DNA from: Candidatus Moanibacter sp.
Lineage (GTDB): Bacteria; Verrucomicrobiota; Verrucomicrobiia; Opitutales; UBA2987
Assembly (NCBI GenBank): GCA_965226025.1
Contig: CBDDCD010000001.1
Location: 74,104-138,103, forward strand
DNA: 64,000 nt
Direction of reading: 5' to 3'
Part shown: piece by piece, positions 1,690 through 27,136 of the stretch
How the letters are laid out: each line of letters starts with the position of its first letter
Numbering within the stretch: position 1 is the stretch's first letter
Translations under genes and position numbers: made by a program
The notes under the pieces: model-generated
The model's input: the letters and a program-made list of their open reading frames with translations, nothing else
Database searches by the model: none
What the model was told of the DNA's origin: nothing

Positions 1690-2331
1690 GAGGGAGTCCG
1701 GAGGACGACCGGAGCCGGAGCCTTGGTTCTTTGTTTTTCTTGTCAAATTGAGCCGGAGTTAGCAAGCCCTAGGAGCGATGAGTGCGAATGTTAATGTATC
1801 CTTCCCGCCAGTCTCCGATTACAACGCGGGATTCAGTGAGGGTCTAACGTAGCTCGCCGTCAAGGCATTCAGCCCGTAAGCGACTGTCGAAGCGTTCGGC
1901 ATATCCGTTCCGCCTGGGACAGCCAGGAACGATATAAATCGTGCCGATCTGGTGTTCGCGCAACAACCGTTGGAGATAGCTTTGGTGATAAACTCGGGGC
2001 CGTTGTCCGATCGAATGAACAGGGGTGCACCATGACGGGAAATCATCTGCTGCGACAGAGCCAGCACAATGGCTGCTTTGATTGCACGATCAGCATGAAG
2101 CACATGGCACTCCCGCCTGTATTCATCGATGATGCTGAGGACCCGCAGTTTGCCGCCTCGCTGAGTGTAGTCCGAAACGAAGTCCCATGCCAATACGTGA
2201 TTCTTGTGTTTGGCCTCTTGAGGCAAACCTGTAGACAGGCCGCGACGGCGCTTGCGTGGCTTCGTATAAACGTCGGGATAAAAACGGTCCGTGGGTCGGA
2301 GTTAAACCGGTACGCTTGGAATGAGGATTAG
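1690..2331 (-). pseudogene. IS3-family transposase OrfB (rve integrase core) remnant, N-truncated with several frameshifts
   Basis: ORF 1819..2226 contains 'FIRSDNGPEFI' and then becomes garbled. The adjacent frames continue with 'WREGYINIRTHRS'-like IS3 C-terminal sequence. Confidence 0.6.
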
Positions 2332-2407
2332 GAGTGTAATTGCCGGTGAGTCAGGGTTTCGGTCTTGCGAGGCTTGCGACCAGCGGGTTCGAATCCCGCC
2401 CTATCCG
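2325..2407 (+). other. pseudo-tRNA (type-II length): intact T-arm and 3' acceptor, degenerate interior, no CCA
   Basis: 2383-2407 'GCGGGTTCGAATCCCGCCCTATCCG' is a T-arm plus acceptor. 2325-2332 'GGATTAGG' would pair perfectly with 'CCTATCC' if one T were removed. No D arm or anticodon arm folds. Confidence 0.35.
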
Positions 2408-2417
2408 TAGTATTTAA

Positions 2418-3602
2418 GCCTGTCCTGCCAAAATAATCAGCCTAAAGGCAGAAGTCATTCGAATCAGGCAACTTGACGGAAGTAATACTTCAGCATGCCA
2501 CCCAACCTTTCTGTGCACGATATCTCCCCGTCCAGGCTCAGAGTTTCCGGTCTGATCAACCGGTTTCCGATTCCTCGATCGTTCCTCTCAGCGTTGTAAT
2601 GCTCGACATTCTCCTTGATCACCAGTTTCAAGTGCCTCTCTCCTAGCGGAATGATCCGATTCAAGCATTCATCCTTAATCGACCTCACAAACCGCTCCGC
2701 AAAAGCGTTACATTTCGGGGCTCGTACGGGACAAAGCACCGGATCGACGCCAAAGTCTCTCAAGAGCTGCTTGAAAGCATTTGTATACTTGGCATCTCGA
2801 TCCATGATCAAGTGGGTCTTACCCAGGCAGATGCCATCGAAGGCATCAGTCAGTCCACGTCCTACCTGTTTCATCCAGGTTCCATCGGGAGCGACCGTTG
2901 TTCCACAGATCAATACGTACCTTGTTGACAGTTCGATAACGAAGAGAGTGTAGAACCGAACCATACCTCTTAGACATAGAACTTCCGAAGTGAAGAAGTC
3001 GGCTGCCAGCAGTCCATCCCAATGTGCTTTCAGGAAAGTCTTCCAGGAACTCTTTCTCAACGGAGCTGGCTCAACTCCGTGTCGCTTCCTGATGTTATCG
3101 GCCGTCGTATCACTGATGTAAATACCGAGATTGGCCAGAGCGCCAACCACCCGATCCGCTCCCCCATAGTGGATTTTCGTGCAGCATCCTCACGACTAGC
3201 TCTTCGACCTCAGGATTCACCCGGGGCCTGCCTCGCTTTCTTTCCCCCTTGAAAGTCCATTTCACTGCCACCAACCTGCGGTACCATCTGAGTAGGGTGT
3301 CTGTCGTAACGATTGGTGTGATCCCACACAACACTCTGCGCCCGAGCTTCTTTGCTCTTCGTGCCAGTCGCATCCTCTGTGAATCGGTAAAGGTTCCAGG
3401 CTTGCCGCCAAGCTGCTCGATAAGGACCCGCCTTTCCTCCATCAGATATTCGATAGTCGTCTGCTGTTTCCGATTCATCCATCCTGCGACCATGCTCACC
3501 ATGAAGTGGAACTGTAGATTCATAGGTTGGGCCAGCTTTCATCCCAACTTCCACGTATTCAATGGCTTAATCTGCTCGGCTGATTATTTTGGCCCTACAG
3601 GC
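2418..3602 (-). mobile_element. 1.19-kb IS with 25-bp terminal inverted repeats (22/25 match) carrying an rve-type transposase
   Basis: 2418-2442 'GCCTGTCCTGCCAAAATAATCAGCC' matches the reverse complement of 3578-3602, 'GCCTGTAGGGCCAAAATAATCAGCC'. Confidence 0.7.
2464..3523 (-). pseudogene. DDE/rve integrase-core transposase split by a frameshift near 3110-3150
   Basis: ORF 3110..3523 (HTH-like N-terminus ending '...ENPLWGS') continues in another frame as ORF 2464..3150 ('VGALANLGIYIS...DRDAKY...NAFAERFVRSIKDE'). Confidence 0.65.
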
Positions 3603-3900
3603 TGTTAAACACCTATTCTGGATGACGGACGGTCAAGACAGGGCACGGCGCCTTCCGCACAACCCTTTCCGCGGTGCTACCTTCAAGGCGAATCTCCCAA
3701 GTTGGAGCGTCTCAGTTCGTAGCGAACACGCCCGTTGTCCATTGCCGCTCCTCCGATTGAGGTAACAATCATCGTGTCCTTAAAGGAACTTCATAGGTTT
3801 CCGCAGAATTCGCTGCGAGTATTGTAGAAGCTAACTGGATAATGGGGATGCTCTGGCGAAAAATCCCAAAAAATTAATTGACTCTAGTCTTTTTCAGAGC

Positions 3901-6073
3901 CTAGCCCAAACTGCGTACTGAAGGGCGGAAAGCACTGAACTTAGAGACGTTATTATTCGTAAGTCGTTGATGAGCAATGAATGTTTGTCCTGTATTGATC
4001 GTGTAGGGACTATAAGTTTCAGTAGTTCTTGACTCTCCCTATCTGCCCGCCCAGACTGGCGGGATATGTTTTTCCGTCTGAAGCATTCCAAGAGCGGCCA
4101 GGTCCTCCAACTGCTTGAATCTTACCGCAACAGCGAAGGTAAACCGCGACAGCGAGTGGTGGTCTCCCTGGGCGATGGGGCCATCAGTCGACCGGACTTT
4201 GGACCCATTGCCAAGGCGGTGCAAAAGCAGCTCTACGGGATCGAGGAACTTCTGGCCCCTGAGTATACGCGTCGACAGCAGAACTGGATTGAACTGATCC
4301 TGCGGCGGATTGATGGGGAGGGGCGGTGGCGAGGACTGCGCCAAAAGGCCGAGGCTTTTGCAGAGCAGCAGAACGCAATTGATGGGGTCTTGGCCGATAA
4401 AGTGGAGCATAGCGCCGCGGGAGTTTTATTGGGACCGATTCTGCTGGGGCTTAAGGGGTGGGAAAAGCTGAGGATGGATGAAGCCTTGCAGGAGGTGGGC
4501 TTGAACCGGGCGCAAAGGGATGCGGCTAAGGTATCGGTGATCAACCGGCTGGTGGATCCAGTGCCTGAGAACGCCTTGCCCCAGTGGGCCAGGCAGAGTG
4601 CCCTGGGAGATCTTCTGGGAGTGGCGGCGGTGAAGTCGGATCGGCATCGCTACTACCGGGTGAGCGATCGGTTGGTGGAGAACCGCGAAAGGATCGAAGA
4701 GCATATGCGCGAGCGCCAGGGGGAACTGTTCAGTTTGGATCGGACGGTACTACTGTATGATCTTACCAATACGCACTTCGAAGGGGTGGGTGCGAGCAAC
4801 GGCAAAGCGAAACGGGGAAAGAACAAACAGAAACGCCACGATTGTGTTCAGATTGTGGTGGGGATGGTGTTCGATACCGAAGGCTTTGAGTTGGGACATC
4901 GGATATTTGCGGGCAACCGCCATGACGCGACGACCCTGTTGGAGATGATCGCTGAATTGGAGAAAGCGGTGGGGGCCCAGGGCGAGCGTGAGAAGACCCT
5001 CATCATCATGGATGGAGGGATCGCGAGCCGGGAGAATGTGCAACTGTTGCGCGAGGAGGGATTCGGCTACCTGGTCAACCAGAGCCGCCGGGGGCGTAAG
5101 GCTTATCTTGCAGAGTTCCAGGAGGCTTCCGGTTTCGAAAAGGTAGAGGGGAGGGATTGGGACCGGGAAGTGAAGGTGAAGTGGATAAAAGAGCAGGTGG
5201 GAGAAGAAAATGAGAGTGAAGGGGACCAGGAGACAACGCAGGAGGAGTCGAGGCAAGCAGGCGAGGAGTATGTGCTGTTGTGTCAGAGCGTGCGCAGGCG
5301 GGCCAAGGAAGAGGCGATTTATTCAGGGGCCGAAGAGCGCTTTATGAAGGCGCTCGAGGGGCTTCAGAAAAGGGTCGATCAAGGCCATTTAAAGGAGCCC
5401 GCAAAAATCCATACCGCGATCGGGCGCTTACAGGGGCAACATTCCCGAGTGCAGCGCTTCTATTCTATTGAACTGGTCGAAGCCGCCAAGGGCTCTAAAG
5501 AGAAAAAGTGCGGCCTTTGCTGGACTCGAAGGGACCAGGCCTGTGATGAGAATGCTCAACTGTTGGGCTGCTCTGTGCTGCGCACCAATCGGCACAACTT
5601 CAGCGGGGCCCAGCTGTGGCGCCTCTACATGACTTTGACCCGGGCCGAAGACGGCTTCAAAGCGCTCAAGAGCGACTTGGGCCTCAGACCCAACCACCAC
5701 CAGATTGAACCGCGCGTTGAGGGCCACGTCTTTATCACCATTTTGGCCTACCAGCTTTTGCGCTTTATCGAATACACCTTGGAGCGGCACGGGGACACCC
5801 GCTGCTGGCAGACCATCAAGCGGGTCCTCCAAACCCATACCTATGCCACTGTCATATTGCCCACTCGACAGGGAGAAGTCTATCGTCTGCGCAAAGCGGG
5901 CATTCCCGAACAGAGCCACAAGCAGATTTACAATCTCTTCCAGATCCAATGGAAGAAATTGCCCGTTAAGAAGAGTATGAGCAAAATAAAAATCGAACCG
6001 ATTTTGTAGTGCCTTTCAAAAACGCGTGTTGATTATCAAGGACTTAACTTATAAAGTGCGAAACTAGGGCTAG
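3901..6073 (+). mobile_element. IS1634-family (IS4-related) insertion sequence
   Basis: The imperfect terminal IRs are 'CTAGCCCAAACTGCGTACT' (3901-) and the reverse complement of 6055-6073, 'CTAGCCCTAGTTTCGCACT'. They enclose a single transposase ORF. Confidence 0.65.
4066..6009 (+). CDS. IS1634-family DDE transposase (647 aa)
   Basis: The N-terminus 'KSGQVLQLLESYRNSEGKPRQRVVVSLG' and the overall length are typical of IS1634 transposases. Confidence 0.8.
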   Translation: MFFRLKHSKSGQVLQLLESYRNSEGKPRQRVVVSLGDGAISRPDFGPIAKAVQKQLYGIEELLAPEYTRRQQNWIELILRRIDGEGRWRGLRQKAEAFAEQQNAIDGVLADKVEHSAAGVLLGPILLGLKGWEKLRMDEALQEVGLNRAQRDAAKVSVINRLVDPVPENALPQWARQSALGDLLGVAAVKSDRHRYYRVSDRLVENRERIEEHMRERQGELFSLDRTVLLYDLTNTHFEGVGASNGKAKRGKNKQKRHDCVQIVVGMVFDTEGFELGHRIFAGNRHDATTLLEMIAELEKAVGAQGEREKTLIIMDGGIASRENVQLLREEGFGYLVNQSRRGRKAYLAEFQEASGFEKVEGRDWDREVKVKWIKEQVGEENESEGDQETTQEESRQAGEEYVLLCQSVRRRAKEEAIYSGAEERFMKALEGLQKRVDQGHLKEPAKIHTAIGRLQGQHSRVQRFYSIELVEAAKGSKEKKCGLCWTRRDQACDENAQLLGCSVLRTNRHNFSGAQLWRLYMTLTRAEDGFKALKSDLGLRPNHHQIEPRVEGHVFITILAYQLLRFIEYTLERHGDTRCWQTIKRVLQTHTYATVILPTRQGEVYRLRKAGIPEQSHKQIYNLFQIQWKKLPVKKSMSKIKIEPIL

Positions 6074-6088
6074 ATCGGTAACAGAAGA

Positions 6089-6098
6089 GGGGGGGGGG
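6089..6098. repeat. G10 homopolymer between the IS1634 end and the PEP-CTERM gene
   Basis: Counted directly: 'agaGGGGGGGGGGaaatc'. Confidence 0.9.
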
Positions 6099-6205
6099 AA
6101 ATCAAAGAGTATCATCGGTTCCTCCCATGTACTCGATTTAGAGAAGGAGGTCTACCAATCAAAAATCAACTGATTCGTAAATTCGCAATCGTTTCCATAG
6201 TCGCT

Positions 6206-6727
6206 TTGGGAACCGTCGCTTTAGGTGTAGGCAATTCTGAAGCTGCGCCCGTAATTTGGAACTTTACGTCTTCGGGCACGAGTCTTTCTGTCAGTGGGGT
6301 CGTCACAATAGAAAGCAGCGATTCCGGCTACGTTCCTGGCGGCACCGTTTCAAACACGTCTGGAATTCTGGATTTCACTTTTAGTGAGGACAATGAAGGG
6401 GACTATTTTGCCACACCCGCCGACAATTTTTTCCAGGACTTTGAGATTATTTTTGGTGGTTCAGTGCATCCGGATGATTTGTCATCAGTCACTTTTGAAG
6501 TGTCGGATGAAACCGCGCCGGTCGCAGCCGGATTGGTCGTCCTCATTTCCGGAACTAGCAATGGATCATTAAGCGTAGATGTTTTCGGAAGTGAGACTCA
6601 CACAAATGGCACCTTCTCGCTAGCCCCCGGTGTGGTCCCCGAACCTTCCACTTGCGTCCTAATTCTCACTGCTCTGGCCGCCGTGGGTTTCTATAGGTGG
6701 CGACAGAGGCAATATCTGCCCTTCTGA
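6206..6727 (+). CDS. PEP-CTERM sorting-domain secreted protein
   Basis: The C-terminus 'VPEPSTCVLILTALAAVGFYRWRQR' is a PEP motif, a TM segment and a basic tail. The signal-peptide-like sequence extends upstream in frame to ATC 6158, 7 nt after 'AAGGAGG', so the true start is probably non-canonical and upstream of 6206. Confidence 0.8.
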   Translation: MGTVALGVGNSEAAPVIWNFTSSGTSLSVSGVVTIESSDSGYVPGGTVSNTSGILDFTFSEDNEGDYFATPADNFFQDFEIIFGGSVHPDDLSSVTFEVSDETAPVAAGLVVLISGTSNGSLSVDVFGSETHTNGTFSLAPGVVPEPSTCVLILTALAAVGFYRWRQRQYLPF

Positions 6728-6846
6728 ACTCCCAAAATCGGATCGATCTAATTAGGTTAATTGATTCGCCGAACTGGTCACCATCTACGCGAACAGCTGT
6801 GATTTAGCAAGAGTTCCGTTCGGGGTAACTCGGTTTTGCCAAATTC

Positions 6847-8478
6847 TCATGTAGAGGATTTTCCTCTGGCATCCTCGAAACACCTGCGGAGAATGGTCGA
6901 GACTTGGCTGACATGAGGATCTCCGAGGAAATCGGCATGCGAGCCCGGGATGTCATAGACTTCAAGGCCGTTGGAAATGAACGGATCCCAGCCGTAAGAA
7001 GGATCGATAAACTCCATCCCGGCTTTGCGCATAGCAATCTGATCTATTGCGCGAAAGAGGACCGTTCGACCCTGGTAAGGCGCAAACTGGTAGCGCCGCT
7101 TTGCCTCCCCTCGGGTGATCGAGAGCGACGGGCACGAAGGCATCGGCGCTGTTGTTCTTAGTCGTTCGTCTTGATCTGTCACCTTTCGTCTCTGGCGTCG
7201 ATCCGCAATCCGGCGTTGGTAGTGCAGTACTCGCCGCCGAATTGCCTGAAAAATGTGCCGAAGGCCCGAATCGGTCATTCTTTTCATCAAGTGTATGCCC
7301 CTCCTGATATGGTGAATCTTCACTGCCGTGGCAAGGTAGGAGTCGAAGAGGACGAGAATAGCGACCTTTTCACCGCGACTCCTAAGCTGCTGCGCTATTT
7401 CGAAGGCGATCACGCCCGAGAATGAAAAACCGGCAAGATAGTACGGGCCATGTGGCTGAATCTCGAGGATCTGCTCTACGTAGCGCGAGGCGAGTACTTC
7501 AATCGGCGGAATCCCGGTGATCTTCACACCGGCGATGCTGTGATGCGGGAATTTCTGTTCCTGGGGCAGAACGATGGCATCGACTGGGATATCGGGCCCC
7601 AGCAATTCGGCCAGTCGCTGGTAATAAAAGACAAAGTAGATACAGATCAAGCTGGGACGTTCGCCGAGAGGCTGAAGGGTAACGATCGGCGATTCGGCTA
7701 CCTCGGTCTCATCGTTACGGAGGATCGCACCGAGCTGCGCGATCGTCGGATAGAGGAAGAGCGTAGTCGGATCGAGTTGCTCTCCGAATTTGCGTTCGAT
7801 TTCCGCAATCAGACGGATGCCCAACAGGGAGTGACCGCCAATTTCGAAGAAATTCTCATCGATACCGATACGCGATCGACCAAGCAGTTTCTCCCAGATA
7901 CCTGCCAGAGTCCTTTCCTCGGTGTTGCTCGGTTTGACGTAGACGCGGTCTTCTTTTTCGCTCTCTTTTTCCGGATCGGGAAGAGCCTTACGATCGATCT
8001 TTCCATTCGGGGTGAGAGGAAGTTCATCAAGGACGACAAAGATTGAGGGAATCATGTAGTCGGGAAGCTGAGTGGCGAGAAACCTGCGTAGATTCCCTCT
8101 TAACTGGGGTTGCCTGTTCGTGGGACAGACATAGGCCACAATGCGTAACTCCAATCCCGTCCGAGAAGAGGCGCTTCCCTTCACCTCAAACGGAAGAACG
8201 GCGCATTGTTGAACGGATCCATGGCTGGACAGCTGAGATTCAACCTCGTCGAGTTCGACCCGCATGCCGCGGACTTTTATCTGCCGATCTACCCGGCCGT
8301 ATATGGCGATGGTTCCATCCAGATCGTATCGTCCATAGTCTCCGGTAAGGTAAATGAGGTCATCGCTGTCCTCTGAACTTGGATTGTGTCTGAACTTTTC
8401 TTGCGTCAACACGGGATCTCGGAAGTAACCCTGACTTCGAAAAGGGGTACGGATGGCAATTTCACCCTTTTCGCCCAA
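6847..8478 (-). CDS. NRPS fragment: C-terminal part of A3 domain, T3 carrier domain, thioesterase
   Basis: Motifs 'YLTGDYGRY', 'GRVDRQIKVRGMRVELDEVE', 'FFEIGGHSLLG' and TE 'GFSFSG' are present. The ORF is the out-of-frame continuation of 8462..16501. Confidence 0.85.
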   Translation of the reverse strand: MGEKGEIAIRTPFRSQGYFRDPVLTQEKFRHNPSSEDSDDLIYLTGDYGRYDLDGTIAIYGRVDRQIKVRGMRVELDEVESQLSSHGSVQQCAVLPFEVKGSASSRTGLELRIVAYVCPTNRQPQLRGNLRRFLATQLPDYMIPSIFVVLDELPLTPNGKIDRKALPDPEKESEKEDRVYVKPSNTEERTLAGIWEKLLGRSRIGIDENFFEIGGHSLLGIRLIAEIERKFGEQLDPTTLFLYPTIAQLGAILRNDETEVAESPIVTLQPLGERPSLICIYFVFYYQRLAELLGPDIPVDAIVLPQEQKFPHHSIAGVKITGIPPIEVLASRYVEQILEIQPHGPYYLAGFSFSGVIAFEIAQQLRSRGEKVAILVLFDSYLATAVKIHHIRRGIHLMKRMTDSGLRHIFQAIRRRVLHYQRRIADRRQRRKVTDQDERLRTTAPMPSCPSLSITRGEAKRRYQFAPYQGRTVLFRAIDQIAMRKAGMEFIDPSYGWDPFISNGLEVYDIPGSHADFLGDPHVSQVSTILRRCFEDARGKSST

Positions 8479-11400
8479 TCCGCATTTGACGCCGTCCCGA
8501 TTGAGAATGAGGATCTGAGTATCGGGAAGCGGCCGGCCGATTGGTTGGACCGTAAAGATTGATCACTCGAGCGCATTCCGGGAAGGCTCGTCGCCACTGG
8601 TAGACGAGCGTGTCGGTGAGCGGTTCGCCCGCGAAGAAGACGGCGCGAAGAGACGAGGAAATTTCCTTTGGCGATGCATCGGCGAACCATGCTTGGGCCA
8701 GACTGGGTACGGAATGCAGAAGGGTAATGCGCTCGGATGCCAACCAGGAAAGGATGCTGCCCGAGGAGAGATCCTCGGCATCGCCCGGAATGCAAAGAGT
8801 TGCGCCGCTGGTCAGAGGAAGAAATATGTCTCGCAGAACAACGTCGAAAGAAAGCCCGGTCAGTTGCGCGATTCGATCACCCCCAACTGTCTGAATCTCT
8901 TCCCTCTGCCATTCAAGGAAATGTGCTAACCCTTTGTGAGTCCCAAGGATGGCTTTGGGCACACCGGTTGAACCGGAACTAAAGAACAGATAGGCCGGAT
9001 CGTCTCCAGAAAGAATCGCAAAGTCCTCTTGGCCGCTCGCGCCGTCAACTATCTGTCCCGAGTCGGCCTCGACCCGGCCGCGGAAAGATGCAGTCAGATC
9101 AAGGTCGTTTTCCGGCCAATCTTCTCTCGCGGCAACTGTGATCAACCCTTTCGCCTGAGAGATATCCAACATCTGCTTTCTCCGAGCCAAAGGAAGTCTG
9201 CGGTCCAGTGTGAGGAGGACTCCACCCGAGAGAAGAACGCCGACGATGGCACAGATCATACCGTAAGAGCGTCTCCCGGTAATGGCTACAAAATCGCCTC
9301 TGCCGACTCCCACTTTCCGGAGATGCGATGCGATCGCCGCTGCCTGGTTGAAGAGATCTGAGTAACTGTGGGTGCGATTCCCGTGCCTCACTGCGGGGTG
9401 CTCGGGATTCCTGGCGGTGCAAGATTCAATGCGGTTCAGGACGGTTTCCACCCTCCGTTCACGGATCGGTGAAGCGAGGTCAGGGAGGATCCGAAGGGCC
9501 ATCGGAGTGACCAACTGGAAACTTAACATCAATCCGTCCGGATTATCCACAACCTGACCCATGAGGCTGTCGAACTGACGGATAAAATCCTCCATTCGCG
9601 CGGCGGCAAAGAGATCGGCGTTGTAGACCAGATCGAAGACCAGCGATTCCCCCGACGCCTTGAAATAGAGAGTGAGATCGAACTTGGACTGAACCTGCGA
9701 AGCCGCCGATTTTTCGGTTTCGAGTCCTTCGAGAGCGAACGGCTCATCGTCGATTTCCGTCTGGTTTATGAGGATCTGAACGAGCGGGGTGTGGCTGAGG
9801 TCGCGTTCCGGCTGCAGCGCCTCGACCAGCTTTTCAAACGGCATATCTTCGTGAGCAAAGGCGTTTAGGACCGTTTCTTTGACATCACCCAGAAGGGTTC
9901 GAAAGGACTGATCCGAGGAGAGTCTGGTTCTCAAAACAAGCGTATTGATGAAGCAGCCGATAATCGATTCGGTTTCAATGTTCTGTCGACCGGACGTGGG
10001 CGTCCCGACAACGATATCGTCCATTCCCGTATGCCGCTGCAGGAGGATCTGAAATACGGCCAGCACTCCCATGAAAATCGAAGCTTCCTCTTTTCTGCAG
10101 AGCTCTCGAAAGCGCCGCGTGACGGCATCGGAGACCTTCAGAGATTCCCGATACCCGCGAAAGGTCTGAATGGCGGGACGCGGGTAATCGGTGGGAAGAT
10201 CCAGAAGCGGTGGAATGTCTTCAAGTTGGGCCTTCCAGTATCGGAGATTCCTTTCGAGGACTTCGTCGCGCATCCAGCTCTGCTGCCAGACGGCGTAATC
10301 TACATAGCGCCGCGCCGGACGGTTCACCACCCATTCTCCGCCGTTCAGATTGGCTCGGTAGCTCTCCTGCAGCTCATTGAGAAGGAGTGTCAACGACCAC
10401 CCGTCAGAGATGGTGTGGTGCATTTCAAGGAGAAGGAAGTAGGAGCGGGGTCCAACTTCCAGAAGCGTGGTTCGGAAGAGTGGTCCCTGATCCAGATCAA
10501 AGGGTGTCAGAGAAAGTCTCCCAAGGAGGCGGTTGGCTTCGGCCAATCGCGTCTCATGACTCGCACCTTGGACTTCAAGAACCCTCAGATCTGTCATCAG
10601 ATCCGGTTGTATTCTCTGATAGGGCTCACCTTCGACGAGCGTAAAGGTGGTGCGGAGGGATTCATGAGTGGCTGTAAGTTCGTTAATGCTTTTTCTCAGC
10701 GCGTCGATGTCGAGGCCGCCTCTTAGACGGAAAGTCTGGCGAATATTGTAAACTGAACTATTCGGTTCCATCCGGTGGAGAAACCAGAGTCTGCGCTGAC
10801 AGAAGGAGAGAGGGAAATGTGTTGAATCCGGTGTGCTTTCGATGGGGGGAAGACGGCGAGTACCGCCCGATCTTTGCTGTTCAACTATCTTTCGGCTCAG
10901 ATCTCGAATCGAGGGAGATTCGAATATGGCTCTGATCGATAGCTCCACATTGAATTCTTTCCGGATCCTGGATATGACGCGAATAGCGAGCAAGGAGTGA
11001 CCGCCAACTTCGAAGAAACTCTCATCAATACCGATACGCGATCGACCAAGCAGTTTCTCCCAGATCCCTGCAAGAGTGCTTTCCTCCCAGGTGCCCGGTT
11101 TGACGTAGACATTTCCTTCTTTCTCGCTCTCTTTTTCCGGGTCCGGAAGAGCCTTGCGATCGATCTTTCCATTCGGAGTGAGAGGGATTTCGTCAAGGAC
11201 GACAAAGATTGAGGGAACCATGTAGTCGGGAAGCTGGGCAGCGAGAAATTTGCGGAGATTCCCTCTTAACTGGGGTTGTCTGTTCGCGGGGTAGACATAG
11301 GCCACGATGCCTAATTCCAATACCGTCTCTGAAGAGGCACTTCCCTTAATCTCAAACGGAAGAACGGCGCATTGTTGAATGGAAGCATGACCGGAAAGCA

Positions 11401-19567: not shown

Positions 19568-19733
19568 TCAAAAGAGTTTGAGTTGGGGGTCTTGGGGGGA
19601 TGTCTTGCGGCGGCGATAGGGGCGGACTAGGCGGTTGGCTTCGGCGAGGAGGTCGACGGTTCTGTCGGTGGCTTCCGGATTTCGGCGGGAGGCGTCGAGA
19701 GCGAAAATGGCTCGCAATTAGGTTTGCGCTCTT
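19568..19733 (-). repeat. inter-cassette module copy R1 (micro-ORF copy with TTG start only)
   Basis: Hand translation gives 'RAIFALDASRRNPEATDRTVDLLAEANRLVRPYRRRKTSPQDPQLKLF*'. Confidence 0.7.
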
Positions 19734-19768
19734 TTGCAGAAGGTTTGGGAGGAGTTGGTTCAGGACTC

Positions 19769-19975: not shown

Positions 19976-20130
19976 GAGGGCGGAAGTGTGCGAAGATCAA
20001 CGGGTTACGGAGTCAGGAAGAGGAAAAATCGAGTTTGGCCATTTTCAGGCGAAATCAGTCTGATTGCAAAGGGTTTGGCCGTAGGAATAGTCGAGTTTGC
20101 AATTAGGTTTGGCACCGAGAAGATCAGATG
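19976..20130 (-). promoter_or_regulatory. upstream half of module: repeated TTTGCAATTAGGTTTGG boxes and a conserved CAACGGGTTA block
   Basis: Boxes lie at 20062-20080 and 20093-20113, with a weaker one at 19940-19965. Confidence 0.4.
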
Positions 20131-20152
20131 CAGGGCTCCTGAATGTCCGCGC

Positions 20153-20692
20153 TCACGGGCCGGAAGTCCGCCGCTTCGCATCCTGCCGCCGGTCCGTGTG
20201 TGTTAAGGAGTGATCGCGCTGGCGAACTTCCTCAACGAGCCTTAGAGCTCTTAATTCGAAGGTCCTTAAGGATGCTAGAACCATCTCAGTCTGTACGATG
20301 CTAAGCGCTTCAACAACACCCATGTAGGTCTCAAGAAATTCCTTCTCCAGTTCCGAAAGCTCTCGAAAACCAAAGACTCTAAGGGCTGTCGATGCTCGCT
20401 TAGACACCGTCTCACGGTATCTATTGAGCTGTAATACTAATTTCTCCGAATCAAAATCTGTAAAATGCCTTTTCGACGTTTGCAGCCCAATTCGTTTCGC
20501 AAGCCATGGCAAGTATCCGTTTAACAACGCGATCGAAAAAGCTAGGAGAAGAGTCAGTACAAAGTACTCTGTTATTTTGATTCCCAGTATCGATACGTTT
20601 GTCAACGGAGGTAGCGTCCAAGCTATGGAGAGCACCAAAACCAACCAAGAAATGCAGTACATGACGACACGCGCCATGATGTGCCTCTGCAA
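20153..20692 (-). CDS. hypothetical membrane protein (2 TM N-terminus, helical C-terminus), cassette cargo
   Basis: TM segments are 'VVMYCISWLVLVLSIAW' and 'YFVLTLLLAFSIALL'. The ORF overlaps the upstream ORF by 55-70 nt. Confidence 0.5.
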   Translation of the reverse strand: MQRHIMARVVMYCISWLVLVLSIAWTLPPLTNVSILGIKITEYFVLTLLLAFSIALLNGYLPWLAKRIGLQTSKRHFTDFDSEKLVLQLNRYRETVSKRASTALRVFGFRELSELEKEFLETYMGVVEALSIVQTEMVLASLRTFELRALRLVEEVRQRDHSLTHTDRRQDAKRRTSGP

Positions 20693-20979
20693 AGTCTTGA
20701 TCGTGTAGTTGGCATGTGGCGTGATTTGCGTAGCTTATCTAGGATCGCTTTCACGTCATTGCGCGTCTCTCTTTTATCAATCGTAGTGACGTCGAGGAAA
20801 TACTCGTTCTCAACGACCTCCTTAACCTTCTTGTTGCTGCGAGAGAACTGAAACCCTGTTTGTCCAATTGAAAGAAATGCGGACAGACCCGAGAGAGCAG
20901 TGACTATTAACGTAAAGGTGGCGGGATCCACGTCCTGATCTTCTAATTTTCTTATAGGCAGCGCGAAAGCATCTGCCAT
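20623..20979 (-). CDS. hypothetical small membrane protein (118 aa), cassette cargo
   Basis: One TM segment, 'FTLIVTALSGLSAFLSIG'. The C-terminal ~30 aa look like read-through into the next gene. Confidence 0.4.
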   Translation of the reverse strand: MADAFALPIRKLEDQDVDPATFTLIVTALSGLSAFLSIGQTGFQFSRSNKKVKEVVENEYFLDVTTIDKRETRNDVKAILDKLRKSRHMPTTRSRLCRGTSWRVSSCTAFLGWFWCSP

Positions 20980-21054
20980 TTTGTGAGAATAACACTTCCG
21001 CCGCTTTCGGCAAGATCTCTGTATAACGTTCTCTTGACGAGTTGATTACACCAG

Positions 21055-21175
21055 ATTCTGGCTCGCAATCAGATTTGCGAACTTTCGCAGAAGGTTTGGA
21101 GGAAGCTGGTTCAGGATTCTCAGAAGAGATTAAGTTGGGGGTCGTAGGCGAAGGTTCTGTCGCTCGCAACGAGAT
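21055..21175 (-). repeat. truncated module copy (duplicate of the R2/R1 junction plus an internally deleted repeat)
   Basis: 21055-21130 parallels 19711-19790 ('GCTCGCAAT.AG.TTTGCG...GCAGAAGGTTTGG.AGGAG.TGGTTCAGGA.TCT.AGAAGAG'). Confidence 0.6.
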
Positions 21176-21246
21176 TTGGACATTTTCGCAGAGGGTTTGA
21201 GCTTTCCTGCGGATCTCGTAACTCGCGCAGACAGAAATCCGGGATG

Positions 21247-21415
21247 CTAAAAGAGCTCGAGTTGGGGGTCTTTCGGGGATTATTTGCGCCGGCGGTGGGG
21301 GCGGACGAGGCGGTTGGCTTCGGCTAGGATGTAGGCGGTTTGATCGGTGGCTTTGGGGGACAGTTTGGATGGATCGAAGGCGAGGTCGATGGCATTGCGG
21401 ATGGCTGGTCTGCGA
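21247..21415 (-). repeat. inter-cassette module copy R3 (micro-ORF with an in-frame TAA)
   Basis: 'AIRNAIDLAFDPSKLSPKATDQTAYILAEANRLVRPHRRRK*SPKDPQLELF*'. The internal stop is at 21280-21282. Confidence 0.7.
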
Positions 21416-21553
21416 CCAGGCTGGGCCGCTGTAATTGATGCGGGGACGACAGTGAAAGCAACTCAGTAACCGGATAGAATCAGCGTTTCGGGAACTGATG
21501 TTGTCGATAGAAGCAAATCAACGGCAGTATTCCACTTCCGGAGCATCCAACGG

Positions 21554-22075
21554 TTACTCCGCGCCGGCCGACCACCACAAGAGTTTTCTGATGAAATAGT
21601 AATTACCAACGCTAAGAAGACCAAAGCCCAAGAGGAAAGAAAAGGTCGTTAAGTAGCCAATCGGCACCCAAATAAGCCTATCAGTGAAACTTTGTTCACC
21701 ATCCTTAGTACTGAATGTTTTGGGTGGTAGAGCGGTGTTGTAGCTAATCCGGACGTTTCGAAGTCTCAAATATTCGGTATGAAGCAACCACGTTACCGCA
21801 ACACAGAGAGTAAGAGCCACACCTAGTATAAACTCGCCGACATCCTTTAACGGGGCGAAATCGTTAACTTTGAAGTGCGGGGCGACATTCAGCGTGATAA
21901 TCGAAAACCCAAGCCGATACGAACTGCGCCAGTAGTGAGTTTGTCTAAGCTGATATTCGTCAAAAATTAGCCGCGCCAGGTCAGGATCGTAATCTCGGGC
22001 TTCAGGAGACATCAAATTACCTACCACTGCGGCCGTTTGAAGGGAACTCAGCGAAATACAGGCATTCGTCGCCAC
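21554..22075 (-). CDS. hypothetical multi-TM protein (173 aa), cassette cargo
   Basis: The ORF has three or more hydrophobic segments, for example 'FILGVALTLCVAVTWLL' and 'LTTFSFLLGFGLLSVG'. Confidence 0.55.
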   Translation of the reverse strand: MATNACISLSSLQTAAVVGNLMSPEARDYDPDLARLIFDEYQLRQTHYWRSSYRLGFSIITLNVAPHFKVNDFAPLKDVGEFILGVALTLCVAVTWLLHTEYLRLRNVRISYNTALPPKTFSTKDGEQSFTDRLIWVPIGYLTTFSFLLGFGLLSVGNYYFIRKLLWWSAGAE

Positions 22076-22224
22076 CTGATGGAGCTTGGGTAGAATTGAG
22101 CGTCATAACTACAGTGAGATTGCTTATGCGCAATCGATGATCCTAAGAGGTAACACGGTCGGCATTCTGCGTCAAGAAACTGATCTCTGTATTTTATGCG
22201 TAGGCGATTGCCTACACCGGAGGC

Positions 22225-22395
22225 TCAAAAGAGTTCGAGTTGGGGGTCTTTGGGGGAGGTTTTGCGGCGGCCGTGGGGGCGGACGAGGCGGTTGGCTTCG
22301 GCGAGGATGTAGACGGTTTGATCGGTGGCCTCCTTGATTCGGCGGGAGTCGTCGAGGGCGAGATCGATGGCGTAGAATCTCGCACTTAGGTTTGG
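22225..22395 (-). repeat. inter-cassette module copy R4 (micro-ORF without canonical start)
   Basis: '...YAIDLALDDSRRIKEATDQTVYILAEANRLVRPHGRRKTSPKDPQLELF*'. The frame opens after a TAA with no ATG, GTG or TTG. Confidence 0.7.
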
Positions 22396-22560
22396 GCATT
22401 GGCGAATCAGCGCGATTTAGGGCGGAAGTACACGGATATCAACGACTTAGGTATCAGTCAAAAGTGAAATACGAGTTTGCGCACTTCTTGGGTCAGATCG
22501 GGGTGTTTGCAATTGGTTTGAGCACTGAGAAATGCGAGTTTGCAGTTAGGTTTGGGTACT
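22396..22560 (-). promoter_or_regulatory. upstream half of module with box repeats
   Basis: Boxes lie at 22503-22523 and 22536-22556. The block 'GGATATCAACGACTTAGG' is also present. Confidence 0.4.
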
Positions 22561-22685
22561 CAACAAGACAGAGGTGACCGGGTTGGCGGACCAACGGAGT
22601 TGACGCTGACGCACAGATAATCGTAAACGAAGGAAACGACATTGAAAGACGGAAAAGCGAGTCAACCCCTGTTCACCGTTTTGTT

Positions 22686-24146
22686 TCAGGAAAGGTGCGT
22701 TGTCGGAGGTGATTCTCTTGCAGAGTTGTCGGTTGCAAGTGCTTTGACCACCCTTTCGAGCTCGCGATCGAATAGGTCGCCGTTGTCTTTCCAACCATTG
22801 AAATCTGCTGCGAGGCGGGATGTTACTTGCATTGCCTTACCACTCTTCCATTGGCCGGAAAGCAAGAATCCGTCGAGGTCAAGGGGAATGAGTGCTAGCA
22901 CTTTTCTGCCGCGTTCTTTCATGAGTTTCTGTTCCTTCTTAAACGCGGCATCGATCTCATTATCAACCCACCAACTGGTCAGAGAATATTCTGATGCACA
23001 CAGAAGGATCTTGTCCCACAGCCGAATCCCGCGATCCACTTGGTCGTAAATGTCATCACCGGGTAACATTTGTTTTTCGTCTAGCCAGCACCGAATGCCG
23101 CGGCCCTGTAGCGCATCATGTAGCCGCCGTGCGAACGACTTGTCTTCATGGCTGTAACTAATGAAGCACGAATAGAACTCTAGAGCGTGGCCTGTTAACG
23201 AAGGGAGGTATGTGATGAGATTGTCCGTGATCCCGCAGCCGCGAAGAAAGTGATCAGGGATCTTACCTCTAGAACGAGTCAGTGTATCAACATCAATACT
23301 ACTCGGTCCAGAATGCACGATCGTGTCCAACCCTTTGACGGTCGAGAGGTCGATTCCACTTAATCTCACCTTCTCGAATTGAGCCTTGTCGAGTTGCACA
23401 TCGGTCATCACAGTGTTCTCAAGTTGTGCATGGGACAGGTTCGCGTTCGTTAGGTCTGCGCCCGACAGATCAGCGCCGATGCAAATACATGACAAATCCG
23501 CCCAAATGACATGCTGCGAGAGGTTTGCACATTCAAGGTCCGCATCAGTGAGGTTGGCGTTGCGAAGTTTAGCGCCAGATAACATGCTCCACCCCAAATC
23601 GGTATCGGTTAGCTCCGCCTCGGTGAAATCAACGAGCTGTAAGAAAGCACCCCTCAAATTCGCACCGCGTAGATTCGCCTCTCGAAATGACGCCCATTTC
23701 AGAATCGCCCCTGCAATGTTGCAGTAACTCAAGCTCGCCTTGGTGAGGTCCGTTCCGATAATGTTCCTCCTTCCTTCGGAATTCAGGATTTCATCCGCAT
23801 CTAGGTTAACCGTTCTTAGGTCGCATTGACTAAGATCCGCGCCACACATTATTGCCCCGCGCAGATCGAGGCCACGCAGGTCAATGTCGGTGAGGTCGGC
23901 TCCTGTCAAATCAAGACGAACATGTGAATCCTCGACACGCCGGGCTGCATTTTCGGTACGCCATTTCGTAACGGCTCCACAACCTCTCCGTAAGAGCGTG
24001 ACGTGCTCGGGATTTGCCATTGGTGTTGGCAGCTTCGTTCGCTGCGTTCGGCTGAATGTTGTGCGTATTTCAAGACACAACTCAAGATAGATTGCGTTTA
24101 CGCGATGGCTGTCTTGGAAAACAGCACTATCGCGAGCCACGGTCAA
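22686..24146 (-). CDS. pentapeptide-repeat protein fused to a C-terminal TIR domain (486 aa)
   Basis: There is a long run of A(D/N)LxG-type pentapeptides. The TIR-like region is 'FISYSHEDKSFARRLHDALQGRGIRCWLDEKQMLPGD...SWWVDNEI'. Confidence 0.8.
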   Translation of the reverse strand: MTVARDSAVFQDSHRVNAIYLELCLEIRTTFSRTQRTKLPTPMANPEHVTLLRRGCGAVTKWRTENAARRVEDSHVRLDLTGADLTDIDLRGLDLRGAIMCGADLSQCDLRTVNLDADEILNSEGRRNIIGTDLTKASLSYCNIAGAILKWASFREANLRGANLRGAFLQLVDFTEAELTDTDLGWSMLSGAKLRNANLTDADLECANLSQHVIWADLSCICIGADLSGADLTNANLSHAQLENTVMTDVQLDKAQFEKVRLSGIDLSTVKGLDTIVHSGPSSIDVDTLTRSRGKIPDHFLRGCGITDNLITYLPSLTGHALEFYSCFISYSHEDKSFARRLHDALQGRGIRCWLDEKQMLPGDDIYDQVDRGIRLWDKILLCASEYSLTSWWVDNEIDAAFKKEQKLMKERGRKVLALIPLDLDGFLLSGQWKSGKAMQVTSRLAADFNGWKDNGDLFDRELERVVKALATDNSARESPPTTHLS

Positions 24147-24189
24147 GAAGCCTCGCTATCTGATTCAAATACAAGGGATTGTGTAACTA

Positions 24190-24250
24190 GCATTCAGGTT
24201 TGCAAACTTTCGCAGAAGCGGAATTTGCAATTAGGTTTGGGCATTCAGTT
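24190..24250 (-). promoter_or_regulatory. partial module (box repeats only) between the DUF4062 and TIR genes
   Basis: 'AATTTGCAATTAGGTTTGGGC' at 24222-24242 and 'CAGGTTTGCAAAC' at 24196-24212. Confidence 0.4.
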
Positions 24251-24423
24251 GGGGAAAAGGGCCAGGATCGGTATGAATGGATTGTGAGAGTGATTGATCT
24301 CTGCATTTCTGGGATTGACGTTAGGATTGGGATGGTAGTGGATGAAGCTAGATACTTTCGCTTGGAGGAACTACTCCGTTTGCGGTAGAATCGCTTCAGA
24401 AGATATACTCGAAGTCTAACAGC

Positions 24424-25326
24424 TCACCAGGTTGATCCCTGTGGGTTGGAATCTCCCAAGGCCGCGGTCTTAACTTTCTCGGATTCAAGCTTGTTAAAGA
24501 AGATACGGCCCGCATCCGAGATAGTGTATTGAGAAGGACCTGTCCTGCTGAGCAGGCCGAGCCTGTAAAGCTGATCAGTTTCAGATCGGGCAAAACGGCC
24601 AGAACCTCTGTCGAAAAGTTGATCTCGATTTTCTTCCATCCATTCGAGCAGACCTTTATCGATCACGATATCCCTTAGTTCAGCGAAAGTGAGCCCATTA
24701 AGTAGCGTGTCTTGCCTACCACTTTCAACCTGGCTTCGTAGCAGGGAGTTCTCGCGACTCAGCCGGGTGATCTCATCGGTTACTGCAGGCATGTTCACCT
24801 GTGTCGAGGATCGTACCCAGCCTTCGAGATCTTCGCGACGAGAGAATTCACCGAGGGTCTGATGTATCGACAGCTGGATATCCTTCTCATCGTTCCAAAA
24901 TCCCACTGTCTTTTTTTGAACCAGATCTCGAAACTCTGCGAGTTTATCAGCTTCTTCGGTCTCCCTGGCTTCGGGTCCCAGACGGCGAACTTTCTCATCA
25001 AGCGCTGGCTGCTCGATCACACAGGAAAACAGAGCCAATCCTTTTTCCAAAGCGTATTTATACTCCACTTCTATGTAGCTTCTGCCTGTTTTCGGGTCGA
25101 TACTACCGTATCGACCTGCCAGGATCAGGAGGAACACGTCTGATTGGTTGATCCACTGCTTTATGACCTCCATCTGCGACTCATCGCCAGCTGCAAAAAG
25201 CTCCATACCAGCGGGAATGTGTCCAGCCGACAAGATTGCCTCGACTCCCGCCTGCCTTTCCACTTTTAGATCGGTGTACGTTGAGGAGACAAATACCTGC
25301 AGGCGTTTTTTAAGGAAGTCGACCAT
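24424..25326 (-). CDS. DUF4062 (TIR-like) domain protein with a helical/wHTH-like C-terminus (300 aa)
   Basis: The N-terminus 'VFVSSTYTDLKVERQAGVEAILSAGHIPAGMELF' matches the DUF4062 signature. Confidence 0.7.
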   Translation of the reverse strand: MVDFLKKRLQVFVSSTYTDLKVERQAGVEAILSAGHIPAGMELFAAGDESQMEVIKQWINQSDVFLLILAGRYGSIDPKTGRSYIEVEYKYALEKGLALFSCVIEQPALDEKVRRLGPEARETEEADKLAEFRDLVQKKTVGFWNDEKDIQLSIHQTLGEFSRREDLEGWVRSSTQVNMPAVTDEITRLSRENSLLRSQVESGRQDTLLNGLTFAELRDIVIDKGLLEWMEENRDQLFDRGSGRFARSETDQLYRLGLLSRTGPSQYTISDAGRIFFNKLESEKVKTAALGDSNPQGSTW

Positions 25327-25405
25327 AGGACGATTGTCGGAATTTCCCCCTTCCTTTCAAGGGAGTCAATCTACTTAGAGATCGTCGCGAATGAGCTTTG
25401 ATTCT

Positions 25406-25575
25406 TCAGCTGCCGAAAAGTTCCAGCTGCGAGATTTGTGTCATCTTGCGGCGGCGGGGGGGGGGCGGACGAGGCGGTTGGCTTCGGCGAGGATGTAGAC
25501 GGTTTGATCCGTGGCTTCCTTGATTCGGCGAGATGCGTCGAGAGCGAGGTCGATGGCGTTGCGGATGTGCTTCAT
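25406..25575 (-). pseudogene. inter-cassette module copy R5: micro-ORF with ATG, out of frame at a C10/G10 tract
   Basis: 'MKHIRNAIDLALDASRRIKEATDQTVYILAEANRLVRPPP' runs into the homopolymer. The conserved tail 'RRRKMTQISQLELFGS*' is in the +1 frame. Confidence 0.5.
25456..25465. repeat. G10 (C10 on coding strand) homopolymer inside micro-ORF copy R5
   Basis: Counted directly: 'gcggcggcGGGGGGGGGGcggac'. Confidence 0.9.
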
Positions 25576-25745
25576 GAGCCTTGCAAAGAAGCTTGAGCAT
25601 TCGCGAATTAGGACGGAATAGAGCGGAAGTCAGCGAATAGCAACGGGTTAGGGGACTCATGGGGTGAGAGATCGAGTTTGAGCACTTTGGGGCTATATTT
25701 TAGGGGGTTTGCACATGGTTTGAGCACTTTTCGAGTTATTGCAAG
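25576..25745 (-). promoter_or_regulatory. upstream half of module with box repeats
   Basis: 'GGTTTGCACATGGTTTGAGC' at 25706-25725, 'CGAGTTTGAGC' and 'AGCAACGGGTTAGG'. Confidence 0.4.
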
Positions 25746-25774
25746 GAGTCCGATAGACAGTTTCTGGACGATTG

Positions 25775-26200
25775 CTAACCAACCGGTTGGTTATCTTTCG
25801 CTCTAGGAGTTTCAGAACGAGGTGGGGCGGCGGCCGCACTGTCTTCAGCCTCTTGTACGTCAATTCTCTGCCGGATTGCTCTCACCACCTCAGCGATCGG
25901 TGTGCGCGTCCGCCACCAGGAGATTAAGAGATATACGCCCATCAGATTCCCAACCACGGAGACGACTATACACAAATTCTCAGCGATCTGACTCCGAAAG
26001 GTTGCCGTACACAGGGCCAATATACTTGAGAACGCCATTGTCAGCAGAAAGACCGCGAAATTCAGCTGGATTGATGCGGGGGACCCTTTCTCAAGCAGGT
26101 CCAGTTCGTTTTCCTTGACTTCAAAAAGGTCGACGGATGCGACTCGACCTCGTCGCACTTGGAGAGGCTTGCTATCCGTTGGGTGTGAGGGAGAACTCAT
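25775..26200 (-). CDS. hypothetical 2-TM protein (141 aa), cassette cargo
   Basis: TM segments are 'FAVFLLTMAFSSILALC' and 'LCIVVSVVGNLMGVYLLISWW'. Its start lies 1 nt after the stop of the upstream ORF. Confidence 0.55.
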   Translation of the reverse strand: MSSPSHPTDSKPLQVRRGRVASVDLFEVKENELDLLEKGSPASIQLNFAVFLLTMAFSSILALCTATFRSQIAENLCIVVSVVGNLMGVYLLISWWRTRTPIAEVVRAIRQRIDVQEAEDSAAAAPPRSETPRAKDNQPVG

Positions 26201-26201
26201 C

Positions 26202-26471
26202 CTATAGATTCTCCCTCAGCCACTTGTCGTATGCCTCGCCGAAGCTATTGAACCAAGCTGCTTCAGTACCAGATCTGACCACGAAGACGCGTTCTCCTTG
26301 GTCAAGGACATTCTGGATTTTGTCCCTAATCTCGACGGCCCTCTGTTCTGTGTTAATCGCCCAACAGTGGTCGTGTATGGGACAATAGTAACGATAGGAT
26401 TTCAGAAATTCCTGCACCTTATCATTGGATGCCTCAGAGTTCGTCTGAAATGTAACGATGTAGCAGGTCAT
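26202..26471 (-). CDS. hypothetical small soluble protein (89 aa), cassette cargo, translationally coupled to the 2-TM gene
   Basis: A compact ORF with alternating beta/alpha-like sequence. I recognise no family. Confidence 0.5.
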   Translation of the reverse strand: MTCYIVTFQTNSEASNDKVQEFLKSYRYYCPIHDHCWAINTEQRAVEIRDKIQNVLDQGERVFVVRSGTEAAWFNSFGEAYDKWLRENL

Positions 26472-26745
26472 CGCGATTCCTTTCCTATAGCTGTCAACAT
26501 GGAAATCTCGTCATTTGGAGAGGGTTGGTCGAGCAGGTCTTCGATGCTCTTCAGGCATAGAAGTGGCTTTCTTGCAGCATTTCAAGGGTCTTTGAGGAGT
26601 TTCTATGGTAAAGAGCCTGAGAGTCCAAATGAGATCCTCAGCATCGACTTTCCTGCACACTTTCTTGTCCTTTTACGCGTAGCTTTGTCGTCGCACTTCA
26701 AAGATGGGCAGTCGCGAGCGAATCCGTCGGGCGAGGAAAGTGAGC

Positions 26746-26830
26746 TTAGAATAGCTCGAGTTGGAGGTCTTTGGGGATTGTTTGCGGGGGCGGTGGGGTC
26801 GGATGAGGCGGTTGGCTTCGGCTAGGAGTT
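26746..26830 (-). repeat. truncated and frameshifted module copy R6 (3' ~85 bp only)
   Basis: 'LAEANRLIRPHRPRK', then a frame change, then 'QTIPKDLQLELF*'. Confidence 0.6.
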
Positions 26831-27108
26831 ACACGGTCGAGTCTAACGCTCATCGAATGGAAAATTTGGAACTTGGGTATTTGTGGGACCACTGAAGCTC
26901 GGAAAATTTGGGACAGAGGGCGCGTTTCCCATGTTTCTTTTTCTACGCTTTCTCCAATATCAGGAGAATCTAAGAGCTCCTTTCCGTCATCCTCAATACT
27001 CCGCGCCATCGGCGATTCTCGTCACATTTATTCTTACCGCCATTCTGAAACGGTCTACCTGCCGATCATAAAAGTATGTAAACATTTGAATAGAAATGTC
27101 TGACAAAA

Positions 27109-27136
27109 TGGCGGAGAGGGCGGGATTCGAACCCGC
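27109..27136 (-). other. tRNA-Ser-like 3' fragment (complete T-arm, acceptor, CCA), not a complete tRNA
   Basis: The reverse complement is 'GCGGGTTCGAATCCCGCCCTCTCCGCCA'. No matching 5' acceptor or foldable anticodon arm lies in the next 100 nt. Confidence 0.6.

Follow-up and report, generated by a model that had tools for sequence, protein, structure and literature searches.

Orphan 3' pieces of tRNA-Ser genes beside a repeat array in an expanded Opitutales genome, probably scars of site-specific recombination

Why should a stretch of bacterial chromosome that encodes no tRNA-Ser carry the 3' end of such a gene three times, with two of the copies in inverted orientation around a block of about 10 kb? 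The stretch in question comes from Candidatus Moanibacter sp. and spans 64,000 nucleotides (nt), C1:74104-138103, hereafter the window. The genome (G000) belongs to the Opitutales and comprises 8.27 Mb in three contigs, C1, C2 and C3. We find that all three copies derive from the 3' ends of tRNA-Ser genes and that they are probably, with a probability of roughly 0.6, orphan attachment (att)-type scars of site-specific recombination between integrative elements and the genes for tRNA-Ser(GGA) and tRNA-Ser(GCT). The copies and the sequences next to them are the following:

17132-17154, plus strand: copy 1, the last 23 nt of tRNA-Ser(GGA)/(GCT), T-loop through CCA
27109-27138, minus strand: copy 2, the last 30 nt of tRNA-Ser(GGA), 5' side of the T-stem through CCA
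2383-2407, plus strand: copy 3, a diverged T-arm and acceptor strand, 24/25 to the tRNA-Ser 3' end, without CCA
17117-17131, plus strand: the tag, 15 nt (GCAGGAGGGCGAT...) directly before copy 1
17155-17311, plus strand: the module, the 157 nt after copy 1, a paralogue of the sequence 3' of intact tRNA-Ser genes
26876-27108, minus strand: the arm, about 240 nt following copy 2

The 23-mer TTCGAATCCCGCCCTCTCCGCCA is present exactly at 17132-17154(+) and 27109-27131(-), and none of 100 dinucleotide-preserving shuffles matched it. In a comparison with all tRNA genes of the genome, copy 2 equals positions 62-91 of tRNA-Ser(GGA), 30 nt without a difference, and the identity of copy 1 to this gene covers the last 23 nt only; copy 3 has CCGTAG in place of CCGCCA. 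Together, copies 1 and 2 form a 31-nt inverted repeat (90%) that brackets the ~10-kb block. An earlier note, made from the letters of the window, had pointed out the inverted 23-mer, the third copy with its missing CCA and the incompleteness of all three, and these observations were reproduced. It had also recognised the T-arm of copy 2, which is indeed there, but the match ends at 27138, 2 nt past the 27136 given in that note.

Neither a cloverleaf nor full-length tRNA similarity was found at the copies with ARAGORN, with Rfam at gathering and permissive thresholds, or by alignment with shuffled controls, and the permissive Rfam scans recovered the T-arm hairpin alone. We considered that the copies might be decayed whole tRNAs, and rejected this: the 80-90 nt upstream align no better than shuffles to the bodies of tRNA-Ser, Leu, Tyr and Sec. 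Given the T-hairpin alone and upstream sequence at the level of shuffles, the copies are therefore genuine 3' fragments of tRNA-Ser genes, neither tRNAs nor decayed tRNAs. A tRNA-like minihelix made of tag and copy 1 was rejected as well: the window copy folds (z = -2.05), and its sibling, which has a disrupting change, does not (z = -0.72).

ARAGORN predicts 48 tRNAs and one transfer-messenger RNA (tmRNA) in the whole genome, among them two intact tRNA-Ser genes of the kind that the earlier note had proposed to look for as donors. Six orphan Ser 3' pieces exist genome-wide, three in the window and three elsewhere. The donors and the siblings outside the window are:

C1:1714085-1714175: intact tRNA-Ser(GGA), donor
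C3:3158923-3159015: intact tRNA-Ser(GCT), donor
C3:3171393-3171422, plus strand: orphan Ser piece, 30 nt
C1:1410980-1411002, minus strand: orphan Ser piece, 23 nt
C1:430749-430779, minus strand: orphan Ser piece, 31 nt, showing the three bases by which tRNA-Ser(TGA) differs

The two donors share an identical terminal 29-mer that the fragments also carry, and every exact copy of the 23-mer in the genome is a tRNA-Ser gene or a fragment listed here. The resemblance to att sites, suspected from the letters, thus stands: these are 3' pieces of tRNA-Ser genes, with intact donors elsewhere in the genome. Their 5' limits recur. Copy 2, the C3:3171393 piece and the C1:430749 piece extend over 30, 30 and 31 nt between unrelated outer flanks; copy 1 and the C1:1410980 piece extend over 23 nt each, both behind the same 15-nt tag. 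A fixed crossover position common to several junctions is found in the 30/30/31-nt set and in the 23/23-nt set, and such recurrent limits fit site-specific recombination with a fixed crossover better than random truncation of a 90-nt gene.

Downstream of tRNA-Ser(GCT), at a distance of 12.4 kb, the piece at C3:3171393 stands in direct orientation. This pair is a classic island layout, with the caveat of an unusually long repeat, and C3:3158923/3171393 is the only place where a fragment has a direct-repeat partner, that is, an intact tRNA on the same strand at the far end of an island. The C1:1410980 site falls within the non-homologous C-terminal tail of an accessory 731-aa open reading frame (ORF). 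The tRNA-Ser(TGA) fragment lies 113 nt (C1:430780-430892, locus L010) downstream of an intact tRNA-Leu(CAA), itself at a synteny breakpoint relative to the same-genus genome G002; at C1:430 kb the fragment is followed by an arm and then by a second repeat array, which includes an IS66 TnpB gene.

The flanks separate the two inverted copies further. Tag and copy 1 form a 38-mer whose only other occurrence, at C1:1410979-1411016(-), is 97% identical. The module, which contains two hairpins and a repetitive extragenic palindrome (REP)-like repeat dispersed in the genome, follows both intact tRNA-Ser genes and two orphan pieces: together with the 23-mer it is 91.8% identical to the sequence after tRNA-Ser(GGA) over a 182-nt alignment, and it is ~81% identical to the sequences after tRNA-Ser(GCT) and after the C3:3171393 fragment. 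It was not found in eight other genomes of the family examined. Whether the C1:1410980 junction is homologous to the module outside the 38-mer was considered too, but the similarity was unconvincing. Copy 2 and its arm match the C1:430749-430779 fragment and the sequence behind it (73.5% identity over 268 nt); between the other sides of these two junctions no similarity was found, 356 of 500 shuffles scoring as well. Since a TGA-type fragment has an arm like that of copy 2, flanks that are related to each other have 3' ends of different isoacceptors attached to them.

Copies 1 and 2 are junctions of two distinct classes, and a sibling of each exists at another place in the genome. With 23 as against 30 nt of identity, different flanks and separate siblings, the inverted copies are therefore unlikely to be the ends of one insertion, and the notion that the pair delimits a single element finds no support as it stands. 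An inversion between the two copies cannot be the origin of their inverted orientation. The earlier note had argued for two integrations plus an inversion; the differences in identity length and in both flanks leave this unsupported as such.

What happened at the donor genes was examined by comparison with the same-genus genomes G001 and G002 (2.6-2.7 Mb). In both, as in the studied genome, tRNA-Ser(GGA) follows the nqr operon. In the relatives the gene ends in CTCTCCG, then TTTTTT, with neither an encoded CCA nor the module, and the genes that come after it there are found here at C1:1859192-1869932, ~145 kb away and in inverted order. The genes after tRNA-Ser(GCT) in G002 are found here at C1:1451851-1454121, and the tRNA itself is on C3. 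Both tRNA-Ser genes have thus kept their upstream context, lost their downstream context and gained the same module, and one has gained CCA. With CCA and module absent from the congeners and the downstream blocks displaced, we conclude that the tRNA-Ser 3' ends and what follows them were replaced; going by these sequence comparisons, this is the pattern that replacement of a 3' end by incoming DNA would produce.

The sole tRNA gene that ARAGORN and Rfam find in the window shows a similar break:

29175-29251, minus strand: intact tRNA-Pro(GGG), synteny kept 5', broken 3'

Its 5' side is collinear with G002 except for one inserted sulfatase gene, its orientation is the same there (ARAGORN on the G002 locus), and the 3' side alone is non-syntenic, similarity to the same-genus genomes ending ~8 nt past the CCA. 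Several former neighbours on the 3' side, including a 199-aa gene, now stand at C3:1.99-2.00 Mb, and the ancestral tRNA-Pro locus appears to be split between C1 and C3. For window positions 1-20000, G001 and G002 offer no counterpart apart from a 66% match in an adenylation domain. Given the synteny break after tRNA-Pro, the window to the left of this gene is therefore accessory or rearranged DNA, and since 1-20000 lacks a counterpart, all three fragments lie in accessory DNA 3' of tRNA-Pro. As a side observation, a 23-nt piece of the tRNA-Pro(GGG) T-arm (22/23) occurs at C3:2003298-2003320(-), 180 nt from the orthologue of the 199-aa gene, which in G002 is two genes away on the 3' side of tRNA-Pro.

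Synteny thus breaks at the 3' ends of tRNA-Ser(GGA), tRNA-Ser(GCT) and tRNA-Pro, the window region is absent from the relatives, and the Ser fragments lie inside DNA attached to tRNA-Pro and tRNA-Leu. Expansion of the genome seems to be concentrated at tRNA 3' ends. Further scars are 3' pieces of tRNA-Gln, -Gly, -Met and tmRNA; of tRNA-Thr there are 5' pieces, which stand next to an integrase (C3:1197131). Integration into tRNA genes has therefore taken place in this lineage. Among these pieces, that of tRNA-Gln measures 58 nt (C1:1597511-1597568), that of tRNA-Gly(TCC) measures 30 nt and lies 18 kb downstream of its own gene (C2:642509-660483), and those of tmRNA measure 24 and 20 nt and lie 36-40 kb from ssrA (C3:850912-890756).

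In the explanation that we favour, integrative elements would bring a replacement tRNA 3' end, and if an element carries such an end, each integration would therefore leave a tRNA 3' piece at the element boundary. Later accretion, insertion sequence (IS) activity and rearrangement would part the 3' pieces from the tRNA bodies and remove the recombinase genes. Copy 1 (tag, 23 nt and module) and copy 2 (30 nt, arm and array) would be unrelated junctions facing each other, and the ~10 kb between them, like the window left of tRNA-Pro, would be an accessory patchwork on the 3' side of tRNA-Pro(GGG). We infer that an integrase made the junctions and, there being none nearby, also the order of events.

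Several observations weigh against these scars being the work of integrative elements. No tyrosine or serine recombinase was found among the window ORFs scanned against Pfam, which matched IS transposases, non-ribosomal peptide synthetase (NRPS), TIR, DUF4062, radical-SAM and HTH_17 families; a scan of the whole genome gave ten PF00589 matches and one large serine recombinase, and the PF00589/PF00239 matches listed genome-wide all lie far from every Ser fragment. There being no tRNA-Ser in the window by ARAGORN and Rfam, no window copy has an intact partner beside it. The similarity among module copies continues for 160-250 nt beyond the tRNA end; this exceeds the usual length of att identity and could stem from homologous recombination or from segmental duplication. 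No conserved sequence that would define an element body was found beyond the module or the arm. In the public genome and metagenome collections scanned, neither the conserved 23-mer block of the arm nor a 30-mer spanning the copy-1 tag and fragment has an exact match.

The block between the inverted copies contains a repeat array, with six to seven copies of the repeat between 19562 and 26849. Its outermost members are:

26744-26849, minus strand: first array repeat, what is left of the final codons of protein X (...AEANRL...QLELF and stop)
19306-19600, minus strand: last array repeat with a 265-nt tail, 96.6% identical to C3:2162286-2162580

The fragments had been described as sitting exactly at both ends of this array. 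Copy 2 does abut it, but copy 1 is separated from the last repeat and its tail (19306) by 2.15 kb, a stretch that holds a 374-aa ORF.

The matching sequence at C3:2162286-2162580 is the 3' end and downstream region of a full-length X gene (~165 aa) next to tRNA-His, and the sequence shared with that locus stops at ...CTGCCTATAAGAG(A/G)GTTGG. The micro-ORF of the array corresponds to the last 35-75 codons of X, and the array repeat recurs in the genome near tRNA-Leu, tRNA-His and tRNA-Asn. Proteins of the X family have a strongly conserved FPxYLLKCLQDFFxxHGDDLYxxLKHIRNAL block and a QLxLF end; X matched no Pfam family, and its relatives are mostly from Opitutales. Elsewhere in the Verrucomicrobia, X comes last, as the third or fourth gene, in an IS-like element of 3.7-4 kb that consists of a Zn-ribbon ORF, rve, AAA_22 and X between 10-nt terminal inverted repeats (GCCAGCAAAG). 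Since the array repeats match the X 3' end, they are therefore end remnants of rve + AAA_22 + X elements; the studied genome has no homologue of the rve or AAA_22 of the X element.

Loci with X are the window (19562-26849), L011:10549-11067(-), L023, L024 and L034-L077; at L042 the X element lies 112 nt downstream of tRNA-Asp, and at L074 a bare X 3' remnant comes directly after tRNA-Ile. No tRNA 3' direct repeats were found around X-type elements in other genomes, so the X family by itself does not explain the Ser fragments. A T-loop-like motif upstream of two X remnants gave no tRNA-like Rfam match and was set aside, as was the idea that the arm is the inverted end of such an element, since no terminal inverted repeat is common to the arm and the array tail. 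One 4.1-kb contig with a single X-type element (L059, JANYBX010000372.1) has the same 115-nt right-end tail at 17-131 and 3975-4089, a solo right end thus standing 265 nt before the left end of the element. From this position the element seems to have inserted beside a right end already in place, and such an insertion could be the seed of arrays like the one in the window.

How far can other explanations account for the copies? An island with an inversion, a duplication and a working role for the tRNA-like ends each fit fewer facts than att-type scars do. Chance matches, or a dispersed repeat unrelated to tRNA, have the short length of the sequence in their favour and nothing more; the shuffles (0/100) and the identity of every exact 23-mer copy as a tRNA-Ser gene or fragment have already refuted them, and their likelihood is next to nil. 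It is unlikely that a single island arose at a tRNA-Ser-type site between direct repeats and that the copy-1 end was then flipped by a local inversion that broke once inside the repeat pair and once beyond it. Both copies do point into the same ~10-kb block, the genome is heavily rearranged at tRNA loci, and flipping 17117-17311 alone restores direct repeats. However, identity lengths of 23 and 30 nt, different flanks and separate siblings are at odds with such a history; suitable breakpoints carry no inverted repeat or IS pair, the C1:430 kb array is without a second fragment, and the two population contigs described below show the present arrangement only. Site-specific recombination might also have played no part, if the 3' portion of tRNA-Ser and its downstream sequence were duplicated by homologous or IS-mediated events and the paralogues truncated. 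The similarity of the module for 160-250 nt beyond the tRNA (82-95% identity) would suit a duplicated segment that diverged uniformly, several fragments have IS copies directly beside them, and the genome is three times as large as those of its congeners; yet five fragments share two exact 5' limits, TGA-type and GGA-type fragments sit on homologous arms, and tRNA-Ser(GGA) has gained CCA relative to the congeners, which makes this account unlikely.

The tRNA-like ends might instead be working parts of the element that built the array, either terminal inverted repeats or a mimic of the attachment site of a transposon homing to tRNA 3' ends. The pair is a 31-nt, 90% inverted repeat bracketing the block, and X, of which the array repeats are remnants, is the third gene of the rve + AAA_22 IS-like element. 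This element or an X remnant occurs just 3' of tRNA-Asp (L042) and tRNA-Ile (L074), and of tRNA-His and tRNA-Asn in the studied genome, and the Ser(TGA) fragment 113 nt after tRNA-Leu recalls the L042 element 112 nt after tRNA-Asp. We nevertheless regard a working role as very unlikely: the block contains no transposase and the genome no rve/AAA_22 homologue, no target duplication is convincing, an inverted partner is missing from the second array, tRNA 3' repeats are absent from the X-element loci of other genomes, and the fragments track host isoacceptor sequences exactly. A related reading is, in our estimate, also distinctly improbable: the 30-nt tRNA-Ser end and arm would be the leading end of a recombinase-less array, founded by an rve + AAA_22 + X transposon recognising tRNA T-arm/acceptor ends, and orphan scars would serve it as attachment sites like intact tRNAs, or travel with it. 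If true, it would explain why arrays start at tRNA-His, at tRNA-Asn and at two different tRNA-Ser fragments.

Other identities for the block were considered and lack support. An integron is not favoured by the whole-genome PF00589 scan, which lists no match in the window, nor by the inter-cassette repeats, which are remnants of the protein X gene. For a site-specific invertible segment no recombinase was found, and two metagenome contigs show one orientation only. The terminal repeats of a DDE transposon would suit the 31-nt inverted repeat, but there is no transposase between the copies, no clear target duplication and no second element with both ends.

The metagenome contigs (ENA ERZ26167216 and ERZ25071132) are collinear with window 13598-27869 and 22408-31166 at 99.7% identity, and one base differs near copy 2. 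Both have the same arrangement as the window, which is therefore fixed in the sampled populations. Within the block, window 20153-20979 holds two overlapping ORFs (118 and 179 aa) where locus L032:6873-7700, on the near-identical metagenome contig, has one of 275 aa, either a strain frameshift or an assembly error. An NRPS is encoded in the window as a single 2679-aa ORF (8462-16501); in L032:11213-19694 it is called as ORFs of 1011 and >2288 aa, and the alignment breaks around a 3228-nt module repeat. The surroundings of copy 3 and the interval between copy 2 and tRNA-Pro contain:

1819-2226: rve remnant near copy 3
2417-3603, minus strand: IS abutting copy 3, with 43-nt inverted repeats (2417-2459 and 3561-3603) and HTH_32 and rve ORFs
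27432-28855, plus strand: radical-SAM (SplB-like) gene and HTH_17 gene, between copy 2 and tRNA-Pro

Copy 3 lies in the ~150-nt gap between the rve remnant and the IS, other copies of which are found at C1:1448335 and C3:2189872. The HTH_17 gene (28382-28855) encodes a 157-aa protein of the excisionase/AlpA type of DNA-binding proteins.

The practical consequences concern annotation. The fragments are not to be annotated as tRNA genes, and the cassette array is not to be read as an element that they delimit. They mark this 8.27-Mb genome as one expanded and reshuffled, relative to its 2.6-Mb congeners, largely at tRNA 3' ends, and the 30-nt and 23-nt limits, the module and the arm are fixed landmarks for tracing the elements responsible. 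It may be more useful that the array micro-ORF has been identified: it is the end of the third gene in an IS-like element family that is so far undescribed and frequently stands next to tRNA genes.

How do these relics compare with known systems? Insertion of Tn7-like transposons keeps the tRNA intact and is not known to duplicate its 3' end. Such transposons target tRNA attachment sites and accumulate cargo there, with defence genes among it (bioRxiv 10.1101/2021.02.06.429022; PMC8649781). The array beside copy 2 is like them in carrying TIR and DUF4062 genes and in being made of end remnants of an rve + AAA_22 family often located just 3' of tRNA genes; unlike them, it comes with no TnsA, TniQ or Cas genes that we could find, and X belongs to no described family. 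In Mesorhizobium, tripartite integrative and conjugative elements (ICEs) with inverted att sites have reportedly been described by Haskett et al. in 2016, in which integrases are said to invert chromosome segments, with a set of three dedicated integrases and an assembly that is reversible. Both systems show inverted copies of a tRNA-type att site and chromosome rearrangement at att sites, whereas dedicated integrases or reversible assembly are not seen in the window.

Tandem accretion at one att site, as in phage-ICE tandems, produces internal junctions that lack a tRNA body (PMC13651849). Likewise, copies 1 and 2 and the C3:3171393 piece are tRNA 3' pieces between element DNA with no tRNA body. 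In tandems the elements stay in direct orientation and retain one or more recombinases; the copies here converge and have no recombinase with them. Partial tRNA genes that result from integration are documented and pervasive in prokaryotic genomes (PMC9897764), an example being the island PYG1 of Pyrococcus yayanosii, which lies between a partial and a complete tRNA-Gln (PMC9897764, citing Reiter 1989, Williams 2002). The window fragments differ from these in having no intact tRNA partner or integrase, in that two of them are inverted, and in a repeat that extends past the tRNA end. They agree with them in being exact 3' copies of a resident tRNA, limited at the T-arm and surrounded by accessory DNA, and tRNA-Ser(GCT) with the fragment 12.4 kb downstream is a textbook direct repeat. 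Most likely, then, the scars are a common kind of relic and not the product of a new mechanism.

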